In this document: in pieces, positions 8,643 through 24,200 of the stretch
Position numbering within the stretch: position 1 is the stretch's first letter
Layout of the letters: every line of letters starts with the position of its first letter
Program-made: the position numbers and the translations under genes
Origin: Nitrospirota bacterium
GTDB taxonomy: Bacteria > Nitrospirota > UBA9217
NCBI GenBank assembly: GCA_020052615.1
Contig: JAGVOT010000122.1
Coordinates: 1-32,000, forward strand
Length of the DNA: 32,000 nt
Reading direction: 5' to 3'
Notes under the pieces: model-generated
Told to the model about the DNA's origin: nothing
What the model saw: the letters and a program-made list of their open reading frames with translations, nothing else
Databases searched by the model: none

Positions 8643-9428
8643 TCAGTTCAGGTCGGGATGGCATCTTCTGCAATCCTGGATGGGGAAGGCGACGGTGAGG
8701 TGGCAGACGCCGCAGAATTTACCATTCTTGATGTAGTCCATGCGAAAGTGCTTGGTCCCTTTTTTCTGGATATTGAAGATGTCGGGATGGCAGTCGGCGC
8801 AGTCGAGCCATTCGGTGTGCTTCTGATGGGGGAACGAAGCACGCGTCTTGACCATGCGCCATTCCGGTTCAAGGCGGAGGTTCTTGTCAAAAGGGAGGGA
8901 CTCAAAATCCGGATTGAAGAGGCTCTGTTTTGGCTTGATAAGGCCAATTTTCAGGGCCTTGACCCAGTTGATCCGGTCTCCATACCGGGCCCTGGGAAAA
9001 TCCTGCAGCTCTTTGAACCGCGCGTCCGAGGAACCGACGTTGCCCGTATGGCAGGTCTTGCAGGTTTGTTCCGTTATCCCGAAGGCGATCTTGCCGTTAT
9101 GACACGCCCCGCAGTATTCGCCTTTCCGGATCTTCGCATCGGTCATGTCCGTGGCGTTCGTCTTCATCGCGAAGTTCAGTTCGAAATGGCATACGCGGCA
9201 GGTGAAACGCCGCCGGTGGACCCAGTGGGAAAAGGCCACCGGCGGGTGGGTGCTGCTGAACGTGAGCCTGCTGATGAGGACATTCCCGTACTGCGAGGGA
9301 GGAAGGAGCGCGGGAAGGCTCCAGACCGTGTCGAACTGGGTCCCCCGCACCGGTTCCCTGCTGTCGCTCATGCAGGAAAACGAACTTCCCGCAAGCAACA
9401 GGGCAAGGACAATGACTATCGTTCGCAT
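8643..9428 (-). CDS. hexaheme c-type cytochrome (two c7-like triheme modules), periplasmic
   Basis: There are six CXXCH motifs: CRVCH, CGACH, CKTCH, CADCH, CGVCH and CRRCH. The signal peptide is MRTIVIVLALLLAGSSFSC. The ATG at 9428 is preceded by AAGGA, and this start is preferred over the longer 9485 start. It is a paralogue of the upstream gene. Confidence 0.85.
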   Translation of the reverse strand: MRTIVIVLALLLAGSSFSCMSDSREPVRGTQFDTVWSLPALLPPSQYGNVLISRLTFSSTHPPVAFSHWVHRRRFTCRVCHFELNFAMKTNATDMTDAKIRKGEYCGACHNGKIAFGITEQTCKTCHTGNVGSSDARFKELQDFPRARYGDRINWVKALKIGLIKPKQSLFNPDFESLPFDKNLRLEPEWRMVKTRASFPHQKHTEWLDCADCHPDIFNIQKKGTKHFRMDYIKNGKFCGVCHLTVAFPIQDCRRCHPDLN

Positions 9429-9481
9429 GCGTTCCTTTGTTCGTGAGACCGCCTCTTCATGCCCGGAGTGTCCCGAATGGA

Positions 9482-10273
9482 TCAATAGACCTCTTTCAGA
9501 TGACAGAGCTGACAGTCATAGAACGGGAACGCGACCTTGGCGTGACAGCTGCCGCAATACTTGCCGGCGAAGATGTCCTGCATATTGTACTTGGTGGCGC
9601 CCTTCTTGGCTCCGAAGATCTCGGGATGGCAGAGTTCGCATCCGTTGATGTCGGCGTGGATCTTGTGGGAGAAGATGATGTCCGGCATGCCGAGGATCGT
9701 GGACTTGATGTCGAAGTCCTTTGGCCGGGGAATGTCCTGCCGCTTGATGGAAATTCCTTCGACCTGGTCGCTGAGCTTGATGAGGTTCTTGTCAGCGGCC
9801 TTCATCCAGTCGACCCGGTTGCCGAACCGTGCCGGCGGGAAGCCCTTCAGGAATTCGTTGAAATCCTTCTGGTTCTTCACGTCCTTGCCGTAGGAGTGGC
9901 AGCGTTCGCAGTTCTGGACCTCGGTTACCAGCTTTTCCCGCGTTGTGGGACCGAAGGCCTCTTTGCCGTTATGGCAAGACCCGCAGTACAGGTGGTTCGT
10001 GTTGTCGGCTTCCCTGATATCGCTGCCGCCGGCCTCCATTGCGAATCCGAGATCGACATGGCAGACCCTGCAGGTGTATTTGGCCCGATGGATCCAGTGT
10101 TTGAATACGACCGGCGCGATGTTGTTCTTCTCGGAATAGTTATTGATGATGACATTGCCGAACTCTTCGGGCCGCGGCATTCTCTTCTTCGTGCCGAAGC
10201 TGCTGGTGGCGGCGATGCCTATGGATGCGAACACGAACAACAGTAGAGCGATGATCAGGACTTTGCGATTCAT
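9482..10273 (-). CDS. hexaheme c-type cytochrome (two c7-like triheme modules), periplasmic
   Basis: There are six CXXCH motifs: CRVCH, CGSCH, CERCH, CELCH, CGSCH and CQLCH. The signal peptide is MNRKVLIIALLLFVFASIGIAA. A GGAAGGAGAA ribosome-binding site lies 7 nt before the ATG. Confidence 0.88.
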   Translation of the reverse strand: MNRKVLIIALLLFVFASIGIAATSSFGTKKRMPRPEEFGNVIINNYSEKNNIAPVVFKHWIHRAKYTCRVCHVDLGFAMEAGGSDIREADNTNHLYCGSCHNGKEAFGPTTREKLVTEVQNCERCHSYGKDVKNQKDFNEFLKGFPPARFGNRVDWMKAADKNLIKLSDQVEGISIKRQDIPRPKDFDIKSTILGMPDIIFSHKIHADINGCELCHPEIFGAKKGATKYNMQDIFAGKYCGSCHAKVAFPFYDCQLCHLKEVY

Positions 10274-10551: not shown

Positions 10552-12012
10552 CTATCGATGGCAGTGCTGGCACAGATCGGCGGGCTTTTCCGCCTTATAC
10601 CGGAAAAGGCCTTTCCAGTCGGAGCTGTGCGCATTATGGCAGCTGATGCAGGCCATGGTCCTGTTGGCGCGTTTCGGATCGTCCACCTTGTCGATCGGAT
10701 GGCCGGATTTCCCGCCTTTCGGCTTTACCTTGATGTCGCCGGGAAGGGGCGTGTCCGGGTGCTGGCCGTTGAACGCGCTGCTGTGGCACTTCCGGCACAT
10801 GTCATTGCCTTCGGCTTTCGCGAGGCCCTTGAACGGAGAGGTATGGTTGCCGTGGCAATCGAAGCATCTGCCGTCGGCGACGGGTTTGTGCACATACTTG
10901 CCCGTGAACCCTTCCGTGCTGTGGCACGTATAGCAGAGGTCGGGGGACTTCCCGATGAGGAGCTTCTGGGACTGGCTCTGATGGGACGAGTGACAACTGC
11001 TGCACATGCCGATCTTGAAAGGACCGTGCTTTTCCCTGCCCATGAGCTCTTCGTTCATATGGCATTCAAAACAGAGCCCCGGGGTAGATTTGGTCAGCAG
11101 GAACTTTGATTTCGCATTATGCGCCTTGTGGCACGTGGTGCACCGTCCGCCTGCAACGGGCTTGTGGCCGTATTTGCCGCCGGTGAAGGATTTTTTATCG
11201 TGGCATTTATAGCAGAGCTCAGGCTGCTTTGCCTGCAGGAGCTTTTCCGTCCGGGACTGGTGCGAACTGTGACAGGACAGGCAATTTCCCTGGGCAACGG
11301 GTTCGTGAATGATACCGCTTGTGTATGCATTCTTGTCGTGGCAGGTGTAGCAGAGCCCCGGCGATTCCGCGACGAGGAGGTCCTTTGCATTCTGCGAATG
11401 GGGATTGTGGCAGGCGGTGCACTTGCCCGAAATGACCGGCTGGTGCTGCATCGCGGTCTTGTCGGCGATGCTCGCCCGGTCATGGCATCTGAAGCACAAC
11501 TCGGGCATGTTGAACGTCAGCAGCTTCTCATTGTTGTCCGAGCTGTGCGCGTCGTGGCAGAACCCGCACAGGGCGGCAGCGGTCGGGAAGTGGATGTTCT
11601 TCCTGGCCGAGATGTTCTTGTCGTGGCACTTGTAGCAGAGATCGGGCATGGCGGTGCTGAGCAGGCGGACGTTGTTGGAGGAATGCGGGTTGTGGCAGCC
11701 GGTGCATTTCCCCGTGGTTACCGGTTTGTGCTGGTAGCGCCTCAGGAACAGCGACCTGCTGTGGCAATCATAACAGAGGTCGGGCTGTTCGGACTTGAGG
11801 GAGAGAACGCCCTTGTTCGTGCCTCCCGCATGGGGCGCGACATGGCAGACACCGCAGCCTTTTTTCATGGCCCCGTGCAGCACCCTGCCTTTGCTCATTG
11901 CCTGGTGGCACTTGTTGCAGTCCTCATCGGCAGCGAAGGCGACCTCCGCGAACAGGAGCATTGCGGCAGCGCAGAGGAACGCTGATACTATCGGAAGGTT
12001 CTTGAAGTTCAT
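10552..12012 (-). CDS. 19-heme c-type cytochrome built from 'doubled CXXCH' repeats
   Basis: 19 CXXCH motifs were counted in the translation. The recurring unit is LCYxCH...H.PV..G.C..CH.xH. The signal peptide is MNFKNLPIVSAFLCAAAMLLFAEVAFA. The start is the ATG at 12012, with the GTG at 12033 as an alternative. Neither has a clear ribosome-binding site. Confidence 0.9.
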   Translation of the reverse strand: MNFKNLPIVSAFLCAAAMLLFAEVAFAADEDCNKCHQAMSKGRVLHGAMKKGCGVCHVAPHAGGTNKGVLSLKSEQPDLCYDCHSRSLFLRRYQHKPVTTGKCTGCHNPHSSNNVRLLSTAMPDLCYKCHDKNISARKNIHFPTAAALCGFCHDAHSSDNNEKLLTFNMPELCFRCHDRASIADKTAMQHQPVISGKCTACHNPHSQNAKDLLVAESPGLCYTCHDKNAYTSGIIHEPVAQGNCLSCHSSHQSRTEKLLQAKQPELCYKCHDKKSFTGGKYGHKPVAGGRCTTCHKAHNAKSKFLLTKSTPGLCFECHMNEELMGREKHGPFKIGMCSSCHSSHQSQSQKLLIGKSPDLCYTCHSTEGFTGKYVHKPVADGRCFDCHGNHTSPFKGLAKAEGNDMCRKCHSSAFNGQHPDTPLPGDIKVKPKGGKSGHPIDKVDDPKRANRTMACISCHNAHSSDWKGLFRYKAEKPADLCQHCHR

Positions 12013-12078
12013 AGGTTTTGTCCGAAAAGCCACGAAAGTCTATCAGAATATACGAAAAAAATCAAATGGTTCGCCCGA

Positions 12079-13377
12079 TCATTTGATCTGCTTGATGAAC
12101 TGCTTCAACTCAGCGTCGTTGGGAGCTATCTTGAGCGCCCTTTCCCATGTCTCGCGGGCCTTGTCCTTCTTCCCGATCGCGTAGTAGCCCGAGCCCAGGC
12201 GTTTCCAGGCGAGAATATTGTCGGGCTGAAGTTCGATGACGATCGTGCACTCCTGGATCGCAAGGTCGTATCTTCCTTCATAGATGTGGTTCAAGGCGGC
12301 AAAGAGGTACTGGTCGACGATGTTCATGTCGCCGACCGGCGCTTCCATGGTGCTCAGGATCGACACATACTTGAGCTCAAGAAAGCCTTTGACGGCGATG
12401 GTGAGCGAGGACGGGTTCAGCTGGAATGCGTACCAGGCTCCCGCCATCGAAGCCTTGCGGTTGCCGTCAGCGGCGATATAGTTGCTCATTGCTTTCCGCA
12501 TCATGTCGCCGGCCTGGCCCTTTTCATCGATCCTGAGCGCGACCTTGACGACATCGTCGAGGCGAGAGAGCATGGTCTTGACATCGATATCGGTCGGGTT
12601 GTCGGAGAGGATCTTGTTGTAATAGTCCCGCGCGATGATGTAGTCGCCCCGCTCGTAGGCCTGCCTCGCTTCGGCGTAAGTCGTTCCCATCTTCTCTTTC
12701 ACAGCGGATGCGATATAGCGCGATGCGGCTTCCTGCGACCCGTCGATCTCCAGGATCTTCCTCCATTCGGCAATGGCAAGATCGTATTTCTTTTCCTTCA
12801 TGTATGCATCTGCCTGGTCGTAATGCTTCTTGGTGCGCACATCGACGACGTTGCTCTTTGCATTGTTGTACAGACTGCGGGCCTTGCCGTCATAGGGCCG
12901 GACCACGAGGATCTTTTCCAGCTCGTTCAATGCCGACTTGTAGTCGCCATCCTTGATGAACTGCTCGGCGTGCTGGTACATCTCGTTGGTGGTCTTGTCG
13001 GTGATGAGGTTCTTGGTGATGTCGATCAGGTTCGCGAAGCGCCGGTCATCGGGGTTCATCTTCAGAAGCTTGTCCCAGACCTCGATCGCCGCCGCGTAAT
13101 TCTCGTTCTGAAAGGCCTCGGCGGCGTCCTTGCAGAAGGGCTCCATGACCTGCTGTCTGGCGATGGCCTGGTACCGGGAAGCTGTCTTGTCAAAGGGATC
13201 GATCGCCAGGATCTCGTTCAGGAGCGGGCCCGCCTGATCGAACTTGCCCTCTTTGAAAAGGACGACGACCTCTTTCTTGAGCTGTTCGATCCGTTCAAGC
13301 TGCTTCGGTGTGACAGCGTCCGCCCCGGTTGCGACGGCGAGAACGAGTATTGTGATAAGTGTAAGGAAGTTTTTCAC
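12079..13377 (-). CDS. secreted TPR-repeat protein
   Basis: 432 aa. The signal peptide is MKNFLTLITILVLAVATGADA. Repeated A..Y......Y..A...F..(I/L)L...P units run along its whole length. The GTG start overlaps the upstream stop (GTGA). Confidence 0.8.
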   Translation of the reverse strand: MKNFLTLITILVLAVATGADAVTPKQLERIEQLKKEVVVLFKEGKFDQAGPLLNEILAIDPFDKTASRYQAIARQQVMEPFCKDAAEAFQNENYAAAIEVWDKLLKMNPDDRRFANLIDITKNLITDKTTNEMYQHAEQFIKDGDYKSALNELEKILVVRPYDGKARSLYNNAKSNVVDVRTKKHYDQADAYMKEKKYDLAIAEWRKILEIDGSQEAASRYIASAVKEKMGTTYAEARQAYERGDYIIARDYYNKILSDNPTDIDVKTMLSRLDDVVKVALRIDEKGQAGDMMRKAMSNYIAADGNRKASMAGAWYAFQLNPSSLTIAVKGFLELKYVSILSTMEAPVGDMNIVDQYLFAALNHIYEGRYDLAIQECTIVIELQPDNILAWKRLGSGYYAIGKKDKARETWERALKIAPNDAELKQFIKQIK

Positions 13378-14039
13378 CCGTTTGCCCCTCTGACGATGGT
13401 GATTTCGATGCGCCGGTTCTTTGCCCGCTCTGCGTCGGTCTCGTTCGACGCAGCAGGCCTGAACTCTCCGAGCCCATGGGCGACAAGCCGCTCAGGGGCA
13501 ATGCCCTTGTTGATGAAATAGTAAATGACGCTGAAGGCCCTCGCAGACGACAGTTCCCAGTTTGAATCATACTGAGCGGTGTGTATGGGTATATTGTCCG
13601 TATGCCCTTCGGCGATGACCCTGTTGCTCATGGGTTTCAGCTGTCCGTGCAGATGTTCCAGAAAGGCCCCGATCCCCGGTTTCAGCTCGGCGCTGCCGCT
13701 GTCGAAGAGCGCAAAGCTCTCCATCTTGATCTTGATGTGGTGCGGGGTGATGACGAGCTGGATATTGTCGGTCATCCTGTTCTTTTCGATGAAGTCCCGG
13801 ATGTTCTGCGCCAGCGCGATCTCCTGTTTCATCTGCTTCACCCGCGGATCGTTCGGATTCGTCTCGGCAAGGTCGGAGAGCGCGGTCTCGTATTCCACGG
13901 AACCGGAATAGGAAAAGGCGTAGAACATGATGAAGAGGATGACCAGCGTGAGCATGAGGGTGCTGTAGGGCAGCATCCACAGCTCGGTCTCTTCCAGGTG
14001 CTCTTCGGTGTATTGTACGAACTTCCGGAGTACCGACAT
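13374..14039 (-). CDS. MotB-like protein, paralogue 2 (single TM lacking the conserved Asp; OmpA-like peptidoglycan-binding domain)
   Basis: The TM segment is LWMLPYSTLMLTLVILFIMFY. The C-terminal region is AEGHTDNIP...SNWELSSARA...NRRIEITIV. Its start shares one nucleotide with the upstream stop (TAATG). Confidence 0.82.
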   Translation of the reverse strand: MSVLRKFVQYTEEHLEETELWMLPYSTLMLTLVILFIMFYAFSYSGSVEYETALSDLAETNPNDPRVKQMKQEIALAQNIRDFIEKNRMTDNIQLVITPHHIKIKMESFALFDSGSAELKPGIGAFLEHLHGQLKPMSNRVIAEGHTDNIPIHTAQYDSNWELSSARAFSVIYYFINKGIAPERLVAHGLGEFRPAASNETDAERAKNRRIEITIVRGANG

Positions 14040-14716
14040 TACAGCGTGCTCCTCGCCTGGCGGACCAGGGTGATTTCGATGCGCCGGTTCCGGGCCCGAT
14101 TCACGTCCGAGTCGTTGGGATATGCCGGGTGGAACTCACCGTACCCTGCTGCCACGAGCTGCCCGGGGTCCATGCCGGAGGCGGTGAAAAAATTGACGAC
14201 GCCGACAGCCCGTGCGATGGACAGTTCCCAGTTGGAACGGTACGCGCCTCCGCGGACCGGGATCGCGTCCGTGTGGCCTTCGATGATGATGTCGTTGGGG
14301 AACGCCTCGATCAATCCAACGAGGCTTTCCAGGACATTGACCGTGCCGGGATTGAGCCTGGCGCTTCCGATGGAAAAGAACGTTTCGGGATTCAGGGCGA
14401 TCTTGACGGTCTTGTCCGTTACCGCGATGGTCGCCTTCCCGGAAAGTTGCCCATCCGAGGCCGCCTGCTCGATGCGCTTGATCGCCGCTTCTTCCCTTGC
14501 CATCTTCGCCTGGCGCTCCAGTTCGGCCTGCTCCCGCGCCGATTGGTTGACCACCGTGCTTTCCATGCCGGCGACCACCATCTGCTTTTCCACGGCGGTC
14601 ATGCGCGTCATGGAGAACAGCATAAGGAAGAACAGCATGAGGTTGGTCGTAATATCGGAAAAGATGATCAGCCAGATATTGCCGAACTCTTTCCTTTTTT
14701 CAGTCTGTGCATGCAT
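14039..14716 (-). CDS. MotB-like stator protein, paralogue 1 (TM with conserved Asp; OmpA-like domain)
   Basis: The TM segment is NIWLIIFSDITTNLMLFFLMLF, with Asp at the position of the MotB proton-binding Asp. The C-terminal region is IEGHTDAIP...SNWELSIARA...NRRIEITLV. Confidence 0.85.
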   Translation of the reverse strand: MHAQTEKRKEFGNIWLIIFSDITTNLMLFFLMLFSMTRMTAVEKQMVVAGMESTVVNQSAREQAELERQAKMAREEAAIKRIEQAASDGQLSGKATIAVTDKTVKIALNPETFFSIGSARLNPGTVNVLESLVGLIEAFPNDIIIEGHTDAIPVRGGAYRSNWELSIARAVGVVNFFTASGMDPGQLVAAGYGEFHPAYPNDSDVNRARNRRIEITLVRQARSTL

Positions 14717-14748
14717 GCCCGTGTCCGATCCCGTGTAGCTTCTTCCGG

Positions 14749-15519
14749 CTACTTCTGCCGAATATGCGCCATGATGAAAGCGGTCAGTTTCTTCCTCAGG
14801 ATGAGGGGGACGTCGCCCTGCTGGATCGACATGACGCCTTCAGCGATCATCTCCTTGCTGATGATGTCCCGCTCGCTGTGGTCGGTGAGCTTCGTCGCGA
14901 TCGGGATGAAGACGTTCGCCGAGAAGATCCCGTAAAAGGTCGCCGTGACGGCATTGGACATCGCGGCGCCCATGCTGGCGGGATTGGAAAGGTTCCTCAG
15001 CATTTCCACAATGCCCATGAGCGTGCCGAGAAGTCCGAAGATGGGGGCGACCGTGGCCATGGTCCGGAAGGCCCCTGAGACCTTTTGCTGATTGTGGCGG
15101 GTATAGAATATCTCGCGGCCGAGATTGTCCTTGATGACGTCGTGTTCAAGACCGTCAACGAGCATCTGGACGCCATGGACAAGGAATTTGTCCTCCATTT
15201 TCGGTATCTCGGCGGAAAGGGTCTCGATGCCGTCACGACGCGCCTTTTCGGCAAGCGAGGCAAGGTAATCGATCTTGTCCTCCATGTCCTTGTCGGAGTG
15301 CTTGCTGGGGAACAGCATGATGCGCAGGGACGGAATGATCTCCCGCACGACCGACCAGGGATAGGCTATCAGGGTAGCGCTGAACGTGCCGCCGTAGACA
15401 ATGACGAGCGCCAGGGGATTGAACAGCATGTGCAGGATGTTGCCTACCGCCAGAACATACAGGATCGTCAGCAGGATCGCGACGAGCCCGACAATTGTCA
15501 TTTTATCCATTTTTTCCAT
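14749..15519 (-). CDS. MotA/PomA-type stator channel protein
   Basis: It has a four-TM layout (two TM, a cytoplasmic loop of about 100 aa, two TM). It carries APIFGLLGTLMGIV and AVTATFYGIFSANVFIPIATKL, which include both conserved Pro positions. The ATG at 15519 lies 2 nt after the upstream stop, with GGAGG about 15 nt upstream. A TTG at 15543 is an alternative start. Confidence 0.88.
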   Translation of the reverse strand: MEKMDKMTIVGLVAILLTILYVLAVGNILHMLFNPLALVIVYGGTFSATLIAYPWSVVREIIPSLRIMLFPSKHSDKDMEDKIDYLASLAEKARRDGIETLSAEIPKMEDKFLVHGVQMLVDGLEHDVIKDNLGREIFYTRHNQQKVSGAFRTMATVAPIFGLLGTLMGIVEMLRNLSNPASMGAAMSNAVTATFYGIFSANVFIPIATKLTDHSERDIISKEMIAEGVMSIQQGDVPLILRKKLTAFIMAHIRQK

Positions 15520-15520
15520 G

Positions 15521-16942
15521 TTAGTTGTTTTCAACCTCCACAAGGCCTTCGTTGATCAGGCGGCGTACCACGACCATCAGGTTCTGTTTCTCCCGCCGGA
15601 GACGTGTTGCTGAGAGGGGACGGCTGAATTCCATCTCCTGCTTGAGCCGCTCGGCGGCACCGGCGCTCAAGGATGAGAGGACCTTCTGCTGGATGTCCTC
15701 GGAAGAGGTCTTCAGGATCTGGGCGAAGAGCGCGGCCTCGACGTTCCGGGTGAGCGTCTGGATGCCCTGTGCCGGAAGGTCGCGGATGATGTTCTCCAGG
15801 CTCCTGATGCGCTGCTTCAGGCGCGCGGCGGTGGGGGCGTCCTTCGCCTCGAGCGTCTTGACGATCTTCTCGCGGACCTCCTCGTTGGTCATATCGAGCA
15901 GCGTGACCAGCTTGTTTTCGCCGCCCACGACGTAGGTGAGCTTGTTCTTGACCATCTCTTCGAGGGCGGTAACCTTCTCGACGCTGATCTCTTCCTTGCC
16001 GAGGGATATCGCGACCTCGACCTGCTTCTCCTTCGGGAAAAGCTCGAGGAACCGCATGGCAAGGACGGGGTCAAGGTAGTTTGTCACGATCGCAATGTCC
16101 TGCGCCGCCTTGTCCTTCAGGAGGAACGCGAGGCCAGGGAGGTCGCGCTCGCGAACGAAGGAGAAGGGAAGCCCCGCTTCCTGCGCGGAGACGGCTGCGG
16201 CGGCCGCAACCGCGCTGCCTGCCATGACCTCCCGCTCATAGGTCGAGGTATGCTCCACGTTGACGGTCTGTGCCGTAGCACCTCCGCCCCGGATGGCGCT
16301 CCAGTCGATCTCCTTGAGGGCCGGGATCACTTTCTTAAGCGGATCCATCAGGAACAGTCCGGCCATGACCATCATGAAGCCGCCAACGATGGTCAGGATC
16401 AGCCACAGGAAGTTCGGAAGTGCGAAGAGCGTTCGGAAAAAGCCCTTTGATTCGAAGTCAACTTTCTTTACGTTGATCTGGTCGCCCCGGGTCTGGCTGA
16501 ATCCGATCACGTTCTTCGCCATGTCCTCGATAAGTTCCACGATCGACCCCGGAACGCTGCTGTCGATCCAGATGGAAAGGGTGATCTTGTTGACCCGGTA
16601 CTTGCTGCTCCCGGCGCCGAACAACATCTCGGACTGCCCGGCGCCGAACTCCTTCTTTTGCGGAACGCCGGGGAGCACCAGCGCGTTCGTCTTCTTTTTT
16701 TCGAGAAGCTGGTCGCTGCCGCCTCGCGCGGACACCAGCTCGGCATTCACAAAGATGACGACCTTGTCCGTACCGGTTATTTCCTGGATGACCTGTTTGA
16801 GCTTGCGTTCAAGCTGGCTCTCCAGGGAGATCTTGAGAGCATAATCATCATTTACCTCGGCGTGCGACACCGGGACGGCCGTGAGAAGAATAAACATGAC
16901 GAGAAGAAGCAGGAGTGGACTGCGAGTGATTGTTCGAACCAT
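15521..16942 (-). CDS. membrane protein fusing a shortened FliF-like periplasmic segment and TM to FliG middle and C-terminal domains
   Basis: The signal peptide or first TM is LLLLLVMFILLTAVPVSHA. The periplasmic part ends in LIEDMAKNVIGFSQTRGDQINVKKVDF followed by a TM, which resembles the remembered end of Salmonella FliF (MGFSDKRGDTLNVVNSPF plus TM2). The cytoplasmic part matches the FliG middle and C-terminal domain pattern: DIAIVTNYLDP..A..FL..FP, VVGGENKLVTLL and LSAGAAERLKQEMEF...VVVRRLINEGLVEV. Confidence 0.75.
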   Translation of the reverse strand: MVRTITRSPLLLLLVMFILLTAVPVSHAEVNDDYALKISLESQLERKLKQVIQEITGTDKVVIFVNAELVSARGGSDQLLEKKKTNALVLPGVPQKKEFGAGQSEMLFGAGSSKYRVNKITLSIWIDSSVPGSIVELIEDMAKNVIGFSQTRGDQINVKKVDFESKGFFRTLFALPNFLWLILTIVGGFMMVMAGLFLMDPLKKVIPALKEIDWSAIRGGGATAQTVNVEHTSTYEREVMAGSAVAAAAAVSAQEAGLPFSFVRERDLPGLAFLLKDKAAQDIAIVTNYLDPVLAMRFLELFPKEKQVEVAISLGKEEISVEKVTALEEMVKNKLTYVVGGENKLVTLLDMTNEEVREKIVKTLEAKDAPTAARLKQRIRSLENIIRDLPAQGIQTLTRNVEAALFAQILKTSSEDIQQKVLSSLSAGAAERLKQEMEFSRPLSATRLRREKQNLMVVVRRLINEGLVEVENN

Positions 16943-17035
16943 GTTTGTATCCCCTATTAAATTAATTATTGAAAATGGAACGATGTCGGCAAGGGCGATT
17001 GTCGATCAAGCGTCAATTTTGCAACCAGAATATCG

Positions 17036-17052
17036 ATGCAATATATGTACCT
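17036..17052 (-). promoter_or_regulatory. candidate sigma54 (-24/-12) promoter for the minus-strand array
   Basis: The minus strand reads AGGTACATATATTGCAT. This gives GG-N10-GC spacing and a perfect TTGCA -12 element, with two mismatches to TGGCAC. It lies about 95 nt upstream of the ATG at 16942. Confidence 0.4.
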
Positions 17053-17381
17053 GTAGTTTCACACTAATAATTGTTGGATGTGATATTCAAGTATGTGAAA
17101 AATAAGAATTAATTAAAAAATAATTTGCGCCTCTATGGGATTTAACAAATATTTAACCGAGCGAATGTGCTCACCCGGTGCTTGTTAGTGCTCTCTAATG
17201 TTTACGAGTAAGCGTCCCAAATTAGCACAGTGCAAGATTATTTGTAAAGTGGAATCTTGTCTTTTATTTCGAGAGTGTGTATGATATTCCGTTCAGAGAT
17301 CATGTGTCGGCTGTTCTTTGGCCAGGATTTCGGTGCTCTGTATCGTAAAATCCACCGGCAAAGATCAGCGGGAAGGGACCT

Positions 17382-19022
17382 ATGAAAAAAATAGCGATGA
17401 TCGTTATGGGTTTGTTCATTCTGTTGACCGTCGGCGGCGCAAATGCAGCGACAAGCAGGAAGGCAACTCCCAAGGACAAGGCGCCGGCAGTCAAGGACAG
17501 GAGCGCGGCGGGTGCTCCCGCAAAAGCGGAGAAGACGTCTGTGCCTCTCAACGAGCGTTATACCGACAAGGGCGACGGCACGATCCTTGACAAGAACACC
17601 GGCCTGATCTGGCTCAAAGATGCCAATATCAGCAATCTGCCCCTGCCCGGCGAGGGCGCAAAGCAGTATCTTCAGGAAATGAACAGCGGAAAAAAACCGA
17701 ATTTCGGCTACTCCGATTGGCGCCTGCCGACCATCAATGAGATCGAGACGCTCGTGGAGAAATCCCGGTTCTATCCGGCGCTTCCGGTCGGCCACCCGTT
17801 CACGAATGTGCAGAACCATTTCTACTGGTCGTCGTCGACGGGGAAAGATGTTCTCGATTACGTATGGATCGTGGACCTGGCATCGGGCGAGATGACCATG
17901 GACTATGTTTCCTATTGCAGTTACAAGTTCCTCTGGCCGGTCAGGAGCAGCTGGATGCCGACGACCGCCAAGGCGAGCACCGTCATGACCGGCGGCCTGA
18001 ACGAATTCGGCCAGCTCGGCGACGGCTCCACGGGGGACCGGGACGCATTCCTGCCGGTAAGCGGCCTGGAGAACGTGGTCAAGGTCTCCGCGGGCCTTGA
18101 ACATGCCGTGGCGCTCAAGTCAGACGGGTCTGTTTGGACGTGGGGACGGAACAACCGGGGCCAGCTGGGGAACGGCACCGTCGAAGACAGCCGGGTGCCG
18201 GTCGCTGCCAAGGACCTCTGGAGGATCACCGATGTCGCGGCGGGCATGTTCCATACGCTCGCACTTGCGTCCGATGGAACGGTCTGGGCCTGGGGGCGTA
18301 ATTCCTACGGACAGCTCGGGAACGGATCCAACGAGGACAGCATAACACCGGTGCGGGTCAGCGGTCTGTCGGGCGTCGTGAAGATCTCCGCGGGGATGTA
18401 TCACTCGGTCGCGGTCAGGTCCGACGGATCGGTCCATGCCTGGGGCAGGAACGTGTACGGTCAGCTTGGCGACGGCTCGAACAAGGACCGGAACAGTGCA
18501 GGTCAGGTTTCCGGGATATCGGGAGCCGTGAACGTCACTGCGGGGCTTCATCATACGGTGGTCCTGAGATCCGATAAGACCGTCTGGGCATGGGGCTGGA
18601 ATATCAACGGCATGCTCGGTGACGGGACGGGAACCGATCAGTTCAAGCCGGTGCAGGTCAAGGGCCTTGCCGACATCGTGGACATCCAGGCGGGACTGCA
18701 TCACACCATTGCGCTCAGGTCCGATGGGAGCGTCTGGACATGGGGGGGGAACGAATACAGCCAGCTTGGCAACAAGTCGGCAAGCGGATCAACGGCGATC
18801 AAGATCGATGGCTTGGGGAACATCAAGAAGGTATCGGCGGGAATGTACCACTCCATCGCTGTGATGACGGACGGTACGATCTGGGTATGGGGCAAGGACC
18901 TGAAGAACCAGCCGTTGAAACCCTATCCCGTACGGATATGGGATGTTGCCGGGATAAACGATGTCGCTGCCGGACGGTTCTATACGGTCGTGTTGAGCGG
19001 CGGAAAATCTGCCGTGCAGTGA
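17382..19022 (+). CDS. secreted protein with a DUF1566 (Lcl C-terminal-like) domain and seven RCC1 beta-propeller repeats
   Basis: The signal peptide is MKKIAMIVMGLFILLTVGGANA. The DUF1566 pattern is GDGTILDKNTGLIWLKD...DWRLPTINEIETLV...YWSSS...WPVRS. It is followed by repeated W(T/A)WG.N..GQLG(D/N)G units. Confidence 0.85.
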   Translation: MKKIAMIVMGLFILLTVGGANAATSRKATPKDKAPAVKDRSAAGAPAKAEKTSVPLNERYTDKGDGTILDKNTGLIWLKDANISNLPLPGEGAKQYLQEMNSGKKPNFGYSDWRLPTINEIETLVEKSRFYPALPVGHPFTNVQNHFYWSSSTGKDVLDYVWIVDLASGEMTMDYVSYCSYKFLWPVRSSWMPTTAKASTVMTGGLNEFGQLGDGSTGDRDAFLPVSGLENVVKVSAGLEHAVALKSDGSVWTWGRNNRGQLGNGTVEDSRVPVAAKDLWRITDVAAGMFHTLALASDGTVWAWGRNSYGQLGNGSNEDSITPVRVSGLSGVVKISAGMYHSVAVRSDGSVHAWGRNVYGQLGDGSNKDRNSAGQVSGISGAVNVTAGLHHTVVLRSDKTVWAWGWNINGMLGDGTGTDQFKPVQVKGLADIVDIQAGLHHTIALRSDGSVWTWGGNEYSQLGNKSASGSTAIKIDGLGNIKKVSAGMYHSIAVMTDGTIWVWGKDLKNQPLKPYPVRIWDVAGINDVAAGRFYTVVLSGGKSAVQ

Positions 19023-19033
19023 CCGAAAAAAGG

Positions 19034-19348
19034 CTATTTCTCCGCACCCTGTTTCGATTCGATCATGAATTCAAAGAGTGCCCTGCACTTTTTCAACCGC
19101 TGCAGGTAGATCTTTTTCGACGGATCATCGGATGCCTGTATTTCCGGCATCAGCTTGTCCGACCGCTCTATCAGGGAAGAAAGTTCCTTGATGCTCAACG
19201 TATCGGACCCCTGCGTTTTTGAACAGATATCGTTAAAAGAGTCCTTCCAGTTCCCGGCGGCCGAAGGCGTCGGGAACATTGCCAGTGTCAGCAGGAGCAT
19301 CACTGCCAGTCCAAGTATCATGTGTTCTGTCTTTATTTTATTTTTCAT
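19034..19348 (-). CDS. small secreted hypothetical protein
   Basis: 104 aa. There is a hydrophobic signal-like segment, ILGLAVMLLLTLAMFPTPSAA, followed by a helical charged region. No motif was recognised. Confidence 0.5.
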   Translation of the reverse strand: MKNKIKTEHMILGLAVMLLLTLAMFPTPSAAGNWKDSFNDICSKTQGSDTLSIKELSSLIERSDKLMPEIQASDDPSKKIYLQRLKKCRALFEFMIESKQGAEK

Positions 19349-19723: not shown

Positions 19724-21079
19724 ATGAGGAAACAAAATGCGTTGGGAACGATCTCTCTGGTAGGATTGATCGGATTCCTGCTCATCATTTTTGCTTTTCC
19801 CGGCCATGGCACGTCCCAGACGCCGGCTCCTGCTTCGGAGAGCTGCGTCAGCGCAAATTGTCACGTCACCATGGGCAAGGAGAAGGTCGTCCATAATCCC
19901 GTAAAGGAAGGCATGTGCACGACCTGCCATCTTGCCGCGGATGATCCTCTCAAGAAGACCAGGCATCCAGGCAATCTTGTCATCTCCCTCGTGCAGCCGG
20001 TGGCGGACCTTTGCACAATGTGTCATGAGCCAAAGAACAAGAAAAAGGTCGTCCATGCGCCGATCCAGGGGGGGGATTGTACGTCCTGTCATAACCCTCA
20101 TCAGTCGCCGAACAAAGGCATGCTGAAGGACGTCATGCCGAATATCTGTTTTCAGTGTCATCCGGACAGCATGGTGAAGCATGCCGTCATGCACCCGCCG
20201 GTGGCGGGAGGGGATTGCTCGGGTTGTCATGACAATCATCAGAGCGATTTTCCCAAACGGCTGGTCAATGAGGGGAACGCCCTCTGTTTCCAGTGTCATC
20301 CCGATAAGGAAGAGGGCCTCAAGACCAGGAAGGTAGCCCACTATCCCGTCAAGCAGTCCTGCACCCAGTGCCACAATCCCCATGGATCGTCCGCGAAGGC
20401 CATGCTCACCGCACCGGTACCGGAGCTTTGTTCAACCTGTCATCCGAACGAAGTGATGCTGCGTCAACGGGCCGCCACCAAGCACGGGCCCATGGCCGAT
20501 CAAAAGAGCTGCCGCATCTGTCATGATCCGCATTTCTCCGATCAGCCGCGGCTTCTCGTCACCTCGCAGATGGCGCTGTGTCTTGCCTGTCATGACAAGG
20601 AGCTCGAGACCGGCAAGGGCAAGGTCATGAACATGAAGGCGTTTCTCGAGGCGAACAAGAACACCCATGGCCCTCTGAAGGGCGACGATTGTGTTTCATG
20701 CCATAATCCGCACGGCTCGGACTACTGGAGGATCCTGGTGAAGTATTATCCCCCGGATTTCTATGCGTCCTACTCCGAGGGGAAGTATGCACTGTGTTTC
20801 TCCTGCCACGATAAGGCGGCATTCACGGAGCGGCGCACGAAAACGGCCACGGGCTTCCGTGATGGTGAACAGAACCTCCATTTCGTTCACGTGAACAAGG
20901 TCAACAAGGGGAGGACGTGCAAAGCCTGTCACGAGGTGCACGCGGACAGCGGACAGAATGCACATGTGAAACAATTCGTTGGATTCAGCGGGTGGGCGAT
21001 GCCCATGAACTTCACGCAGGGCAAGGACGGCGGGACCTGTGCGCCGGGGTGTCATGGGGAAAAACGGTACAACAGGTAA
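19724..21079 (+). CDS. multiheme c-type cytochrome with 13 CXXCH motifs plus one CX4CH and one CX3CH (doubled-CXXCH type)
   Basis: Motifs were counted in the translation. The first site is CVSANCH and the last is CAPGCH. The N-terminal hydrophobic signal is ISLVGLIGFLLIIFAFPGHG. An AAGGAG ribosome-binding site lies 10 nt before the ATG. Confidence 0.9.
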   Translation: MRKQNALGTISLVGLIGFLLIIFAFPGHGTSQTPAPASESCVSANCHVTMGKEKVVHNPVKEGMCTTCHLAADDPLKKTRHPGNLVISLVQPVADLCTMCHEPKNKKKVVHAPIQGGDCTSCHNPHQSPNKGMLKDVMPNICFQCHPDSMVKHAVMHPPVAGGDCSGCHDNHQSDFPKRLVNEGNALCFQCHPDKEEGLKTRKVAHYPVKQSCTQCHNPHGSSAKAMLTAPVPELCSTCHPNEVMLRQRAATKHGPMADQKSCRICHDPHFSDQPRLLVTSQMALCLACHDKELETGKGKVMNMKAFLEANKNTHGPLKGDDCVSCHNPHGSDYWRILVKYYPPDFYASYSEGKYALCFSCHDKAAFTERRTKTATGFRDGEQNLHFVHVNKVNKGRTCKACHEVHADSGQNAHVKQFVGFSGWAMPMNFTQGKDGGTCAPGCHGEKRYNR

Positions 21080-21183
21080 ACGGCGTTTGGCGGTCCTGTC
21101 CAGGCAGGAAAGAATACGTGGGTCCTAATAACAGCGCAGCAGACCGATGTCGGGGGAATAATTTGAACAGACCATGGTCAATC

Positions 21184-23124
21184 ATGATGGCGGCGGCAAT
21201 TGCGCTTACCGTTATCCTCATTGCGTATTCATTCTCGGCGGCCCAACCGGCGACATCACCCTCGATCTCGATCCTGTATCCGAAGCATAATGCCCTGGTC
21301 GGGAAAAAGGTCAATCTCGTCGTTGACCCGGCGACCGACTGGACAGCGGCTCCTTTTCTTCAGGTCGTGGTGGGCAACACCGAATACCCGGTGATCGACA
21401 CATCCGCCGGCCGTCATGCAGTTCAGGGTCTTTCTCTGGAGACGGGATCCAATACGATAACGGTCAGGGTGCTCGCCGTTGTTCCCGGTCCGGATCAGGC
21501 AAAGGGAAACAACCGGGAACAAGAGCAAGCAAAGGATTCTGCGAAAAAGAAGTATACCCAGGTCCTGTCGCGCTCGATTACGGTCTTTAACCGGGAGGGC
21601 AGCTTTGCGACCACTCCGCCGCAATTCACGGCACAACACTTCCATTCACGGGAGCAGGAAGGCGAGTGCTCGGGGTGTCACCGTCTTGAGGCCGAACCGA
21701 AGGATCTCAAGCCGGCGAAGCCTGAAGAGATGCTCTGTTATGCCTGCCACCGCGAGATCCCGACCGGCAGGCACATCCATGGGCCGACGGCGGTCTGGAA
21801 CTGCCTGTCATGCCATAACACCGAGATCTATCCGGTGAAGTACCAGTTCATATCCTACAATCCATGGACGGTCACCAAAACGACGCAGTCCGTGGAGCCT
21901 GCCGTGTTCACCTTGTCCTCTGACGTTCTTTTCAAACCCAAATCGGCCCTGTTCGTGAGCGAAACGTCAACACTTCAGCTCAGCAAGAAAGATCGGAAGA
22001 ACAAAAAGAAGCTTGAGGAGTTTAACAGGGCAAAGGCGGCGGAACTGGCATTAAAGCGCGAACAACAGCGGGAACTTTTTAAGGATTTTCTTGAATTCAT
22101 CAAATTGAATCCAGCGGACAAGATACTGGTCGAGGCCCATGTAGATTCCGGCCATTTTCCGCCCGCAAAAGGGAAGGCGAAGGGATTCAAGAACGATGTG
22201 CAACTGACCGCGGCGCGGGCAAAGGCCCTTGTAAAACTGCTGAAGCATTATGGTGTCGCCGGGAAGAACCGCGTTGCGGCCGCCGGCATGGGCAGCACCC
22301 TGCCGAAGGCGCCCAATACGAGCAAAGAGGGAAGGGAATTGAACAATCGTATTGAGATCGTCGTCTATCCGCCGGACGTCAAGATCAAGAACAGCATGAA
22401 ACTTCCCGTCCTCAAAGACCGGGAGCGGGTGGTCGTAACCATGAGTTATCAGCGGGGTGCCGAGGTCGGAAAACTGGCGGTCACGGAACACCTCCCGAAG
22501 GGATTTCTCTATATGCAGGGGAGCGGGGTATTTCGCGGCGCCATTAAGAACCCGCAGGTCAAAGGAAGCGATCTGACCTGGCAGCTCGGGAATTTCGGCA
22601 CGAATTTCCAGGAGACCCTGTCATTCATCGTTAAAAAAGGGAAAGAGGTCACCGCTCCGTTAAGCCCGGTCGTGAATCTCTCGTTCAAGATCGGTCAAAA
22701 GGACGAGCGATTGACGTTCGATCCGGAAAAGCCGTTCAAACCCGGCCTTACCGTCAAAGAGACCTGCGAAAAGTGCCACATGAGCCTGCTTGCATATCCC
22801 GTCAAGCATGGTCCCGCTGAAGCGGGTCACTGCACGCTTTGCCATGATCCCCATGCCAGCAAGTACCCTTCATGGACCCGTAACCAGTCCTGGCGCCTGT
22901 GCACGACCTGCCACGCTGAGAAAAAGACCGGTGTGCACCTGATCGCGGGCTTTGTTCATGGGGTCTCCCATCCCACGAAAAAATGGCCCGATCCATCACG
23001 GCCGGGAAAGCGCCTCACCTGCGTGAGCTGTCATTCACCGCACAGCTCTCAAACGAAGGAACTCATGGCTTTCGACGTCCGGAACAAATATGAGTCGTGC
23101 AGATATTGCCACGCCCAAAAGTGA
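21184..23124 (+). CDS. octaheme c-type cytochrome with an embedded OmpA-like domain and a DUF11-like beta domain
   Basis: The N-terminal hemes are CSGCH, CYACH and CLSCH. The C-terminal hemes are CEKCH, CTLCH, CTTCH, CVSCH and CRYCH. Between them lies ILVEAHVDSG...NDVQLTAARAKALVKLL...NNRIEIVVY, which follows the OmpA_C pattern. The start is uncertain: ATG at 21184, TTG at 21163 or GTG at 21118. The ORF-track start at 20917 overlaps the previous gene and is rejected. Confidence 0.85.
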   Translation: MMAAAIALTVILIAYSFSAAQPATSPSISILYPKHNALVGKKVNLVVDPATDWTAAPFLQVVVGNTEYPVIDTSAGRHAVQGLSLETGSNTITVRVLAVVPGPDQAKGNNREQEQAKDSAKKKYTQVLSRSITVFNREGSFATTPPQFTAQHFHSREQEGECSGCHRLEAEPKDLKPAKPEEMLCYACHREIPTGRHIHGPTAVWNCLSCHNTEIYPVKYQFISYNPWTVTKTTQSVEPAVFTLSSDVLFKPKSALFVSETSTLQLSKKDRKNKKKLEEFNRAKAAELALKREQQRELFKDFLEFIKLNPADKILVEAHVDSGHFPPAKGKAKGFKNDVQLTAARAKALVKLLKHYGVAGKNRVAAAGMGSTLPKAPNTSKEGRELNNRIEIVVYPPDVKIKNSMKLPVLKDRERVVVTMSYQRGAEVGKLAVTEHLPKGFLYMQGSGVFRGAIKNPQVKGSDLTWQLGNFGTNFQETLSFIVKKGKEVTAPLSPVVNLSFKIGQKDERLTFDPEKPFKPGLTVKETCEKCHMSLLAYPVKHGPAEAGHCTLCHDPHASKYPSWTRNQSWRLCTTCHAEKKTGVHLIAGFVHGVSHPTKKWPDPSRPGKRLTCVSCHSPHSSQTKELMAFDVRNKYESCRYCHAQK

Positions 23125-23146
23125 TATGCCAACGATGAGGTTTTTG

Positions 23147-23155
23147 TGGTATACT
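23147..23155 (+). promoter_or_regulatory. possible extended -10 promoter (TGgTATACT) ahead of the NHL genes
   Basis: TGGTATACT was read at 23147-23155, about 40 nt upstream of the ATG at 23193. There is no convincing -35 element. Confidence 0.25.
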
Positions 23156-23192
23156 AATTCCTTGTTGTAGCAAACAACCCTGTTGACTTGAT

Positions 23193-24200
23193 ATGCTCAG
23201 CTGCCGATTACTCATAACGACCCTGCTCATTGCGGTGAGCAGCGCTGGTTGTGCCTTTATTGCCGGCCAGGACGACCCCGGCGCGCCCGGCGAGGGCGTT
23301 AAACACATCCGGCTCAATTATGTCGAGACGCTGAGGAACCAGGCCAGCCTTCGCGGAGAAGGCTTCCTTGACGTTGTTCACACGGCGGGCACTCCGACGA
23401 CCCTCCAGCGGCCCAACAGCGTGTTCGCCGACGCGTTCCGCGTCTATGTGACCGATCAGGCGCAGCCGCCCCGGGTCTTCATCTTCGACCGTGGCGACCG
23501 CACGGCGAGCATCCTTGCCGTCCCCGTCCCGCCCGCCGCAGGATCGCTCGTGAATCCGCTGGGCATTGCGGTGGACATCGACGGCGTCATCTACGTCGCC
23601 GATGCTCAACAGGGAAAGGTATTCGGCTACGACAGGAACGGGGCGCTGCTCCTGACGTTCGGGAAAACCGGCGACCTTGCTTATCCGACGGGAATTGCCA
23701 TCGATAAAAGAAGGAATCGCATCCATATTGCGGATTCCCATGCGCATTTGGTCAAGACCTTTACGATACTGGGAGAACGGCTTTTTGAGATCGGCGTGGC
23801 GGGTCCCGCCGACCAGCGGCCAAAGTCTCCGGCCGGGATCGCCCTCGACGGGGAGGGGAGGATCCACGTTCTCGACAGCCGGTCCCGACGCGTGTTGATC
23901 TATGATCCCGAAGGCAGGTTCATGAGGTCGTTCCCCCTGTCTCGCGGCGGCGCCGGCGACTCGGTGAAGCCCGGGGGGATCGCTGTGGACTCGGCGGGAC
24001 ATATCTATGTGACGGACAGCGTCAATAACAATATCCTCATCTTCGAGTCCGACGGCAGTTTTTTAAGAACTTGGGGCAAAACCGGGAACTTGAAGGGTGA
24101 TTTCTGGTCGCCCCAGGGTCTGTTCATTGACGAACGCGACATGCTCTATGTTGCAGATCAAACCAACAGCCGTGTCCAAGTCTATCAATTCATAAAATGA
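23193..24200 (+). CDS. NHL-repeat beta-propeller lipoprotein
   Basis: The signal and lipobox-like sequence is LLIAVSSAGC. NHL units recur, for example PTGIAIDKRRNRIHIADS, PAGIALDGEGRIHVLDS, PGGIAVDSAGHIYVTDS and PQGLFIDERDMLYVADQ. Confidence 0.85.
   Translation: MLSCRLLITTLLIAVSSAGCAFIAGQDDPGAPGEGVKHIRLNYVETLRNQASLRGEGFLDVVHTAGTPTTLQRPNSVFADAFRVYVTDQAQPPRVFIFDRGDRTASILAVPVPPAAGSLVNPLGIAVDIDGVIYVADAQQGKVFGYDRNGALLLTFGKTGDLAYPTGIAIDKRRNRIHIADSHAHLVKTFTILGERLFEIGVAGPADQRPKSPAGIALDGEGRIHVLDSRSRRVLIYDPEGRFMRSFPLSRGGAGDSVKPGGIAVDSAGHIYVTDSVNNNILIFESDGSFLRTWGKTGNLKGDFWSPQGLFIDERDMLYVADQTNSRVQVYQFIK

Follow-up and report, generated by a model that had tools for sequence, protein, structure and literature searches.

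The 32,000-nucleotide (nt) window analyzed here covers positions 1 to 32,000 of contig JAGVOT010000122.1, from the Nitrospirota bacterium assembly GCA_020052615.1 (GTDB UBA9217). At positions 15521..16942 of its minus strand lies a single uninterrupted open reading frame (ORF) of 473 amino acids (aa) plus stop codon. Its product combines a FliF-type ring domain of the ring-building motif 3 (RBM3) class, a transmembrane (TM) helix, and the middle and C-terminal domains of FliG. Four genes follow on the same strand. They encode a MotA protein of the short, PomA-like type (14749..15519), two MotB-type proteins, referred to here as MotB1 (14039..14716) and MotB2 (13374..14039), and a periplasmic tetratricopeptide repeat (TPR) protein of 432 aa with a signal peptide and a GTG start codon (12079..13377). 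The stop codon of the fusion gene is separated by 1 nt from the likely ATG start codon of motA (TAA-C-ATG), with a GGAGG sequence 14 nt upstream of this ATG. The MotB1 stop and MotB2 start codons overlap in TAATG, and the MotB2 stop and TPR start codons overlap in GTGA. Judging from these junctions, the fusion gene is translationally coupled to the MotA-MotB1-MotB2-TPR cassette. A first-pass annotation of the ORF had proposed a natural FliF-FliG fusion with a drastically shortened periplasmic part. It missed the large family to which the protein belongs and the conserved, dedicated stator operon that accompanies the gene outside flagellar gene clusters.

Pfam returned three matches above the gathering score: YscJ_FliF_C (PF08345) at aa 113 to 163 (E 2.7e-6), FliG_M (PF14841) at aa 271 to 338 (E 2.4e-6), and FliG_C (PF01706) at aa 363 to 468 (E 4.8e-18). 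The YscJ_FliF_C match covers only the last third of the profile (positions 93 to 147 of 147). No Pfam match to YscJ_FliF (PF01514), representing RBM1 and RBM2 of the inner M-ring around the export gate, was found in the fusion, and its approximately 140 periplasmic residues are modelled as a single RBM. The N-terminal domain of FliG, already reported missing by the first-pass annotation, gave no Pfam match either (FliG_N, PF14842), and alignments to PDB chains begin at the FliG middle domain. Also absent, according to Pfam and the models described below, are the C-terminal cytoplasmic helices of FliF that bind FliG_N; the TM helix is followed by a disordered linker of approximately 48 residues and then directly by FliG_M. 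The protein thus reads as a FliF of which RBM3, with its collar shortened, and TM2 remain, continued by a FliG without its N domain.

The periplasmic domain (aa 29 to 165; 16448..16858) was delimited with the models (core pLDDT [predicted local distance difference test] of ~95), Foldseek, Pfam, and a profile. It consists of a helix (32 to 56), a strand (61 to 71), two further strands (115 to 127 and 155 to 161), and a second helix (132 to 146) between the latter. Residues 72 to 114 (16601..16729) form an insert between the first and second β-strands, at the position of the FliF β-collar, and are marked by a conserved motif and by low pLDDT in both monomer models. At approximately 42 aa, this insert is short next to the β-collar of Salmonella FliF, of roughly 110 aa. 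The TM helix, equivalent to FliF TM2, spans aa 175 to 210 (16313..16420) in the models and in a profile alignment to residues 418 to 495 of Vibrio FliF. The cytoplasmic linker that follows (aa 211 to 258; 16169..16312) is predicted to be disordered (pLDDT of <50 at 218 to 255) and corresponds to variable, poorly conserved alignment columns with no FliG_N Pfam match; it would stand in place of the FliF C-tail and FliG_N. The FliG middle domain (ARM_M; aa 259 to 340; 15923..16168) begins at a conserved PFSF motif and carries KAAQ at the position of the EHPQ motif, according to Pfam, Foldseek, and motif comparison. The Gly-Gly hinge at 340-341, conserved in the family alignment, leads into the FliG C-terminal domain (aa 341 to 473; 15524..15922), which matches in Pfam, Foldseek, and sequence alignments and has its torque helix at L425 to F439 (15626-15670).

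The N-terminal hydrophobic segment (aa 1 to 28; 16859..16942) forms a helix over residues 2 to 21 or 9 to 20 in the models. It had been described as a signal or first TM helix, a choice that can now be narrowed. An alignment of 37 close homologues shows a conserved S/V-x-A followed by EVNDDY behind the first hydrophobic stretch, and because this small-x-Ala/Glu site is conserved, the segment is probably a Sec signal peptide. This suggests a cleavable signal rather than an equivalent of FliF TM1, with an uncleaved anchor as the alternative.

Similarity searches recovered the two halves of the protein to different degrees. In a phmmer search against PDB chains, aa 259 to 468 align to the middle and C-terminal domains (FliG-MC) of Thermotoga maritima FliG (3ajc and 1lkv; E ~1e-18), and the engineered Vibrio FliF-FliG fusion chain 8z4d_1 is matched as well. 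NCBIfam aligns aa 258 to 467 to FliG positions 110 to 325 of 338 (TIGR00207; 80.7 bits, below the cut-off of 226.7) and aa 137 to 164 to FliF positions 408 to 435 (TIGR00206; 25.9 bits, below the cut-off of 129.75). When a profile was built from the N-terminal 215 residues, aa 130 to 204 aligned to Vibrio FliF 418-495, including the GF.q.RGD..nv..v.F segment and TM2, which bears out the earlier impression of a FliF-like junction ahead of the TM helix. With the N-terminal family profile, the first helix-strand unit aligns to SpoIIIAG (E 0.006) and only marginally to FliF (E 0.016 to 0.04), and the N-terminal domain of a distant member gave no PDB match in a single-sequence phmmer search. Because such sequence and profile searches were null or marginal, the RBM3 assignment rests on Pfam and the fold search.

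Two AlphaFold2 monomer models were built, one from 37 close homologues (mean pLDDT of 69) and one from 59 sequences of 20 to 66% identity (mean pLDDT of 82, with cores above 93). They agree on an N-terminal hydrophobic helix, an RBM, a TM helix at 175 to 210, disorder at 218 to 255, and two armadillo-like FliG domains from residue 259 onward. The periplasmic order α-β-[insert]-β-α-β is that of an RBM, with the insert at the β-collar site of FliF RBM3. Queried against the PDB, Foldseek returned FliG chains only (E down to 4e-10), then RBM3/S-ring chains of FliF (E ~5e-4; template-modelling score [TMt] of 0.5 to 0.6); PrgK was matched weakly. The single-domain matches are close: FliG_M to 4fq0_C (TMt 0.84; root-mean-square deviation [rmsd] of 1.6 Å), and FliG_C to 1qc7 (TMt 0.76; rmsd 1.9 Å) and to the stator-bound chain 8ucs_H (TMt 0.79; rmsd 1.7 Å). 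The C-terminal half is thus predicted to have the FliG fold, as the first-pass annotation had proposed. The proposed shortening of the periplasmic part holds too and can be put more exactly, as a single RBM3-like domain. The modelled arrangement of the FliG middle and C-terminal domains is nearer to clockwise-state Salmonella FliG (8umx_B, 8wiw, 8vib_G; rmsd 4.7 to 5.4 Å) than to counter-clockwise chains (~14 to 15 Å), which may be a modelling accident.

The fusion belongs to a large family, with 81 homologues of approximately 470 aa recovered by a word-indexed search; these are 41 to 100% identical, come from independent assemblies, and are labelled 'FliG' or 'hypothetical'. A HMMER search of 1.84 billion cluster representatives (50% identity) yielded 203 proteins at E ≤1e-30, most of them 450 to 730 aa long and aligned over the full profile; the longer ones append a cytoplasmic C-terminal TPR domain. 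Several distant members tested match the entire YscJ_FliF_C profile as well as FliG_M and FliG_C. Among GTDB species representatives, the closer family (41 to 83% identity) is confined to metagenome-assembled genomes (MAGs) of Nitrospirota. The few source names of distant members read Elusimicrobiota, unclassified 'bacterium', and BMS3 bins.

This breadth also bears on the possibility, raised with the original proposal, that a sequencing or assembly error, or a pseudogene, artificially joins two genes. Such errors do occur at related loci. Frameshifts split the MotA, MotB, and TPR genes in loci L015 and L021, which stem from related long-read MAGs ('MFD' isolates), and these splits are probably long-read assembly errors and not pseudogenes. 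The fusion ORF, however, is uninterrupted, and the alignment of 37 homologues from independent assemblies runs continuously across the FliF/FliG junction with no frame breaks. Together with the roughly 200 divergent representatives and a 100%-identical protein on an independent 36.6-kb JGI contig, this family evidence rules out a joining artefact for practical purposes.

To characterize the torque-generating region, 287 fusion-family sequences were compared with seven canonical FliGs from the same searches. HMMER and MAFFT alignments with canonical FliGs reproduce the earlier by-eye alignment of the torque helix, in which G428, Q435, and E436 correspond to R281, D288, and D289 of Escherichia coli FliG. 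K411, equivalent to K264, is kept, the torque helix also carries K434, and the R297 position is occupied by Ser. Across the family, the R281 position is Gly in 257 of the 287 sequences and R/K in all seven canonical FliGs. The FliM-binding EHPQ motif, present in each canonical sequence, occurs in none of the fusions. The R297 position is K/R in canonical FliG and not basic in the fusion family, in which the linker ahead of the Gly-Gly hinge is also 7 residues shorter. The D289 position is almost always Glu (the canonical D288-D289 pair is DD in six FliGs and EE in one). The first-pass annotation was therefore right that torque charges are altered, the change of R281 to Gly being family-wide. 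The Gln at the D288 position does not generalize in the same way, given that close relatives comprise 42 sequences with EE versus 37 with QE. The traits that hold family-wide are the change of R281 to Gly, the lack of a basic R297 equivalent, and the loss of EHPQ.

Within the periplasmic domain, residues E41, E45, D127, and R152-G153-D154 are near-universal across 59 diverse and the 287 family sequences, as is an [LMV]PG[VI]P motif (L90 to P94) in the collar insert. To place the FliG_C-containing part phylogenetically, a neighbour-joining tree of 210 FliG-MC columns was calculated, in which fusions split from the sampled canonical FliGs in 99 of 100 bootstraps.

The idea that stator-rotor charge pairing has been rewired can be examined on both partners. 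Nitrospirota-type fusions carry a conserved Glu-Arg pair (E431-R432) that is new with respect to E. coli, with R432 one helical turn past G428. In the cognate MotA, the family alignment over 20 loci shows conservation of R102/R103, equivalent to E. coli R90 (numbering of the 264-aa ORF). The E98 position is variable (S/Q/A/D; S110 here), and a conserved Glu/Asp lies three residues ahead of it. This suggests a shifted charge pair and makes rewiring plausible, and the co-variation is suggestive only. It does not extend to the distant subfamilies, whose fusions lack R432 although at least one cognate MotA (locus L023) keeps the canonical Glu. Strict charge co-variation as proof of stator-rotor contact is weakened accordingly, and because of these distant members the charge pair is treated here as a hypothesis.

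The stator proteins themselves are of flagellar type. MotA matches Pfam MotA_N and MotA_ExbB and the NCBIfam MotA model (E 1e-52; score of 178, below the equivalog cut-off of 340). It aligns end to end with MotA/PomA structures in the PDB (E 4e-41 to 1e-32), TolQ reaching only 3.5e-4, and has the full-length four-TM MotA/PomA architecture with the cytoplasmic torque domain. MotB1 comprises a plug, a TM helix whose proton-binding Asp is invariant (FSDITTNLMLFF), and an OmpA-like domain for binding peptidoglycan. Both MotB_plug and OmpA are found by Pfam, and the FSDITT motif is invariant in the alignment over 20 loci. MotB2 is a MotB paralogue, as seen from Pfam, the alignment, and the gene junction. 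It keeps a MotB-like TM helix, plug, and OmpA-like domain and lacks the ion-binding Asp; the channel residue is Thr (YSTLMLTL) in the window, and the replacement (WMLPYSTLMLTL) is found in every Nitrospirota-type locus, down to a fusion identity of 41%. Distant subfamilies have a single, Asp-bearing MotB. From its sequence, MotB2 may be half of a heterodimeric MotB1/MotB2 B subunit, or a MotY-like anchor. The TPR protein matches only generic TPR models in Pfam and NCBIfam. Its C-terminal half is 31 to 36% identical over approximately 230 aa to the TPR part of PorV-like proteins at loci L022 to L024 (blastp). Given this homology across subfamilies, a TPR partner is part of the conserved core.

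The gene neighborhood was compared across loci. The cassette of fusion, MotA, two MotB-type proteins, and TPR protein is present in every Nitrospirota-type locus with enough sequence, over a fusion identity of 41 to 93%. In four of five distant-subfamily loci, the fusion is followed by MotA and just one MotB, which bears the Asp. Genes for flagellar structure or export were not found within ±10 kb in any of the approximately 10 loci annotated with gene and Pfam tables; the sole flagellar-type neighbor is FlbD, which precedes MotA in three distant loci. A PorV-like (UPF0164) outer membrane protein with TPR repeats is encoded directly upstream of the fusion in L023 to L025 and not in L026. Giant genes stand beside the fusion and MotAB in L023 (1-7919), L024 (1334-8053), and L025 (1-8090); one product is 2,239 aa long, and the others reach at least 6,952 and at least 16,931 aa. 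In L026 the neighbor is a 1,656-aa cadherin/PKD/Big_9 protein (14039-19009).

Taken together, the fusion is probably the rotor subunit of a pared-down rotary motor assembled from flagellar components, a motor that probably works independently of a flagellum. A fuller reading is offered tentatively, at somewhat less than even confidence. The family may constitute a flagellum-independent rotary machine of the envelope, with a single-protein MS/C-ring and dedicated flagellar-type stators and without type III export apparatus, rod, or switch. Its periplasmic ring would drive TPR or outer membrane partners, to which many lineages would add giant surface proteins. Such a machine could have arisen by reduction of the flagellar motor, which then took on a new use, or could be a relic rotor-stator module that predates the union with type III secretion.

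Mechanistically, the RBM3 domains would assemble an S-ring-like ring in the manner of SpoIIIAG and of FliF RBM3, the FliF ring having about 33 to 34 subunits. The FliG-MC domains would thereby be arrayed in a ring of their own beneath the membrane, on its cytoplasmic side. The covalent link would replace the contact between the FliF tail and FliG_N, consistent with the loss of both. These first steps gain credibility from published work on engineered fusions: Salmonella cells with FliF-FliG fusions are flagellated and motile, Vibrio and Salmonella fusions form rings in E. coli (PMC10941966, PMC6079021), and FliG-MC rings partly self-assemble without FliM (PMC6079021). Peptidoglycan-anchored MotA5-MotB units, with ions flowing via the Asp of MotB1, would then push on the FliG_C torque helix, with MotA R102/R103 contacting E436 and possibly MotA E107 contacting R432. 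The ring would turn in the membrane in one direction, because a binding site for FliM, and with it a FliM/FliN switch, is missing. Through its short collar and LPGVP loop, the rotating periplasmic ring could hand work to envelope partners. The TPR protein is one candidate; others in this lineage are the divergently encoded RCC1/Lcl_C protein and perhaps the co-linear multihaem cytochromes described below. The PorV-like/TPR proteins and the giant or repeat-rich surface proteins of the wider family point to an envelope or surface task, for example moving, exporting, or tensioning surface proteins.

Several points weigh against this interpretation. The case for a ring, its stoichiometry, its rotation, and its contact with the stator is inferential throughout, and the collar insert (72 to 114) has low confidence in both AlphaFold2 monomer models. 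Flagellum independence is argued from gene context within ±10 kb and from the missing RBM1/2, FliG_N, and EHPQ. The canonical sample in the clade test is small (five to seven FliGs), the charge co-variation is not family-wide, and at distant locus L022 no MotAB is encoded within 10 kb of the fusion. In addition, part of the synteny among Nitrospirota, namely, the cytochromes and the RCC1 gene, may reflect vertical inheritance only.

Alternatively, the fusion could serve a genuine flagellum, either as a divergent replacement for FliF and FliG or as an extra ring that parks or recruits stators at a normal basal body. Every component is a homologue of a flagellar part, FlbD, a flagellar operon protein, lies ahead of MotA in three distant loci, some Nitrospirota are flagellated, and the TPR proteins PflA and PflB scaffold stators in the motors of Campylobacterota. 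However, the protein offers no RBM1/RBM2 to house an export gate, no FliG_N or FliF tail, and no EHPQ for FliM. The cassette brings its own MotA and MotB, the fusions form a clade separate from canonical FliG, and the surroundings lack flagellar structural and export genes, with distant members adjoining giant surface and PorV-like proteins instead. We therefore consider a flagellar role unlikely. The same low probability is assigned to a static device coupled to the proton-motive force, in which the FliG-like domain docks MotAB on a fixed envelope ring. Stator rotation or conformational change would then itself be the output, through TonB/TolA-type coupling or tethering via the two OmpA-like domains. 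The two peptidoglycan-binding MotB-type proteins and the periplasmic TPR protein do suggest strong wall anchoring, and other 5:2 motors (ExbBD, TolQR, ZorAB) work without a large rotor ring (PMC9389320). Yet the RBM3 ring domain has one TM helix per subunit and no evident wall anchor of its own. Moreover, the torque-helix region and the D289-equivalent acid are strongly constrained together with MotA R102/R103, and in flagella it is the MotA/FliG torque interface that turns the rotor.

A third possibility, an anti-phage or stress-sensing system with a MotAB-like motor resembling Zorya, is very improbable. PADLOC did match MotB1 and MotB2 to ZorB profiles (E 2e-22 to 4e-20), but these matches reflect general MotB/OmpA homology, and the fusion and MotA have no PADLOC match. 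MotA is a full-length relative of flagellar-type MotA/PomA and not ZorA-like. No nuclease or effector genes were seen in the context, which is housekeeping and respiratory and syntenic across the phylum, and a defence system was therefore rejected as a candidate.

With a rotor subunit of a reduced motor as the favored reading, the closest comparison is the canonical pair of FliF and FliG (Salmonella, Vibrio, T. maritima; 6SCN, 8UMD, 1LKV). Shared features are the RBM3 fold with its β1-β2 insert, the RGD...F segment, the TM helix, ARM_M, the Gly-Gly hinge, and the FliG_C torque helix with the K264- and D289-equivalent charges. Unlike that pair, the fusion is one polypeptide without RBM1/RBM2, FliF C-tail, and FliG_N, with a collar of only ~42 aa. 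It has no EHPQ, has Gly in place of R281, has lost R297, has the shorter pre-hinge linker, and is encoded outside a flagellar cluster. Laboratory FliF-FliG fusions (Salmonella mutants; Vibrio FliFG, 8Z4D/8Z4G) have the covalent link in common with it, a link that allows ring assembly. They are, in contrast, engineered or spontaneous mutants that join full-length proteins within a complete flagellum, whereas the fusion in the window is natural, ancient, much shorter, and equipped with its own stator genes. One of the Salmonella fusion mutants of Francis and colleagues (1992) reportedly also had the FliF C terminus and FliG N terminus deleted, which would give it the topology of the fusion in the window.

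Compared with MotAB/PomAB stators (6YKM, 6YSL, 8BRD, 8UCS, 9LU9), the cassette shares the end-to-end MotA alignment, the R90 equivalent, and the plug, Asp-bearing TM helix, and OmpA-like domain of MotB1. It differs in that the MotA E98 equivalent is not conserved, with Glu three residues earlier, that the Nitrospirota type always adds an Asp-less MotB, and that the genes are linked to the fusion and not to flagellar or chemotaxis genes. The GldLM gliding motor of the type 9 secretion system (T9SS), ExbBD-TonB, TolQR-TolA, AglRQS, and ZorAB are likewise MotAB-family ion motors that power non-flagellar envelope or surface processes, and the PorV-like and giant adhesin-like neighbors of the distant subfamilies recall T9SS and gliding. 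None of GldLM, ExbBD, TolQR, AglRQS, and ZorAB is known to employ a rotor ring of the FliG type or a ring of the FliF type. The A subunits of those 5:2 motors fall in a non-flagellar clade (PMC12505986), whereas MotA of the window is flagellar-type. SpoIIIAG and PrgK/EscJ (SctJ) share the α-β-β-α-β RBM fold, in SpoIIIAG also with a β1-β2 insert; unlike the fusion, they have no FliG-like cytoplasmic domain and no stator. Finally, the cassette encodes, alongside its stator, a TPR protein of the periplasm and MotB2, an additional OmpA-like protein of the MotB type that is non-conducting; the periplasmic stator scaffolds PflA/PflB of Campylobacterota and the MotX/MotY T-ring of Vibrio offer parallels. 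By analogy, the TPR protein and MotB2 could position or stabilize stator units. The parallel is loose, in that the TPR protein matches generic TPR models only, and MotB2, in contrast to MotY, has retained the TM helix and plug of a MotB.

No curated family covers the fusion: NCBIfam (June 2026) gives only subthreshold FliF and FliG matches, and PADLOC nothing for the fusion or MotA. Full-text literature searches yielded engineered FliF-FliG fusions but neither a natural fusion nor a FliG-type rotor in a non-flagellar setting, and the cassette is not mentioned in the 'giant genes' preprint. A survey of MotAB evolution groups flagellar-type stators as one flagellar clade (PMC12505986), and work surveying how flagella were lost says no more of the rotor proteins of species lacking filaments than that they 'could have an alternative function' (10.1101/2024.12.05.626484). 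While all domains are known flagellar parts, their combination into a reduced, fused, and apparently autonomous rotor-stator module matched no curated family and no published description in these searches, and the chance of its being a machine in its own right is substantial. Should the motor work, no simpler pairing of a FliG-type rotor with a MotAB stator would be known: one protein would serve as membrane ring and torque ring, and there would be no switch, export gate, or axial structure. A rotor that has lost the R281 and R297 charges and retains an acid at the D289 position would also bear on the question of the torque charges. The module also bears on the origin of the flagellar motor, namely, on whether a rotor-stator module was ever independent of the type III export apparatus, and on the role of rotor genes in species without filaments. 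A 473-aa protein expected to self-assemble is a good target for cryo-electron microscopy, and stators with a heterodimeric B subunit are conceivable in view of the conserved MotB paralogue that lacks the Asp.

Upstream of the fusion, an AT-rich divergent intergenic region (16943..17381) separates the operon from a plus-strand gene (17382..19022). This gene encodes a secreted RCC1-repeat β-propeller protein with a signal peptide and an Lcl_C domain (Legionella collagen-like adhesin C-terminal), as identified by Pfam and from the sequence, and is divergent from the fusion in nearly all Nitrospirota-type loci. The intergenic region contains a σ54-like -24/-12 element (AGGTAC-N5-TTGCA; 17037-17052, minus strand), a pattern match located 110 nt upstream of the fusion start. 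Matches to the σ54 pattern are fewer in the window than expected by chance (7 versus 13.5), and the element is not significant alone. Of 16 related loci, only 4 (L006, L011, L012, L015) have a similar GG/GC element, located between -101 and -131, and a σ54 promoter is kept as a lead only. Scans of the window for σ70 promoters and terminators and an Rfam search gave nothing above background. A σ54 activator (6840-8207) and its histidine kinase (5338-6834), both on the plus strand, are syntenic with the cassette.

The RCC1 gene is adjoined in 9 loci by a minus-strand gene (19034-19348) for a 104-aa secreted protein with a signal peptide and two invariant Cys residues (ICSK...KKCR), which has no family match. 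Beyond it, a plus-strand block (19724-25231) that is syntenic in several Nitrospirota loci encodes a 13-haem cytochrome, a 735-aa OmpA-like protein with 8 haem motifs, and two NHL-repeat β-propellers. On the other side of the operon, a multihaem cytochrome with 19 CXXCH motifs (10552-12033, minus strand) starts 45 nt past the TPR gene on the same strand and is followed downstream by two 6-haem c7-like cytochromes (9482-10273 and 8643-9485, minus strand). This order of TPR protein, large cytochrome, and two c7-like cytochromes recurs in most Nitrospirota-type loci, including those with a fusion identity of 41 to 47%. At L003 (11146-17594) and L004 (14936-21401), with 42 to 43% identity, the TPR gene is followed by same-strand genes for a GspF/PilC platform protein and several pseudopilins (N_methyl), together a cluster of the type II secretion or type IV filament kind. 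Lastly, a Roadblock/LC7 (MglB-like) protein is encoded near the MotAB-less fusion locus (L022; 15798-16145) and a PilZ-domain protein near another (L025; 18684-19481), possible links to polarity GTPase control and to braking by cyclic di-GMP, respectively.

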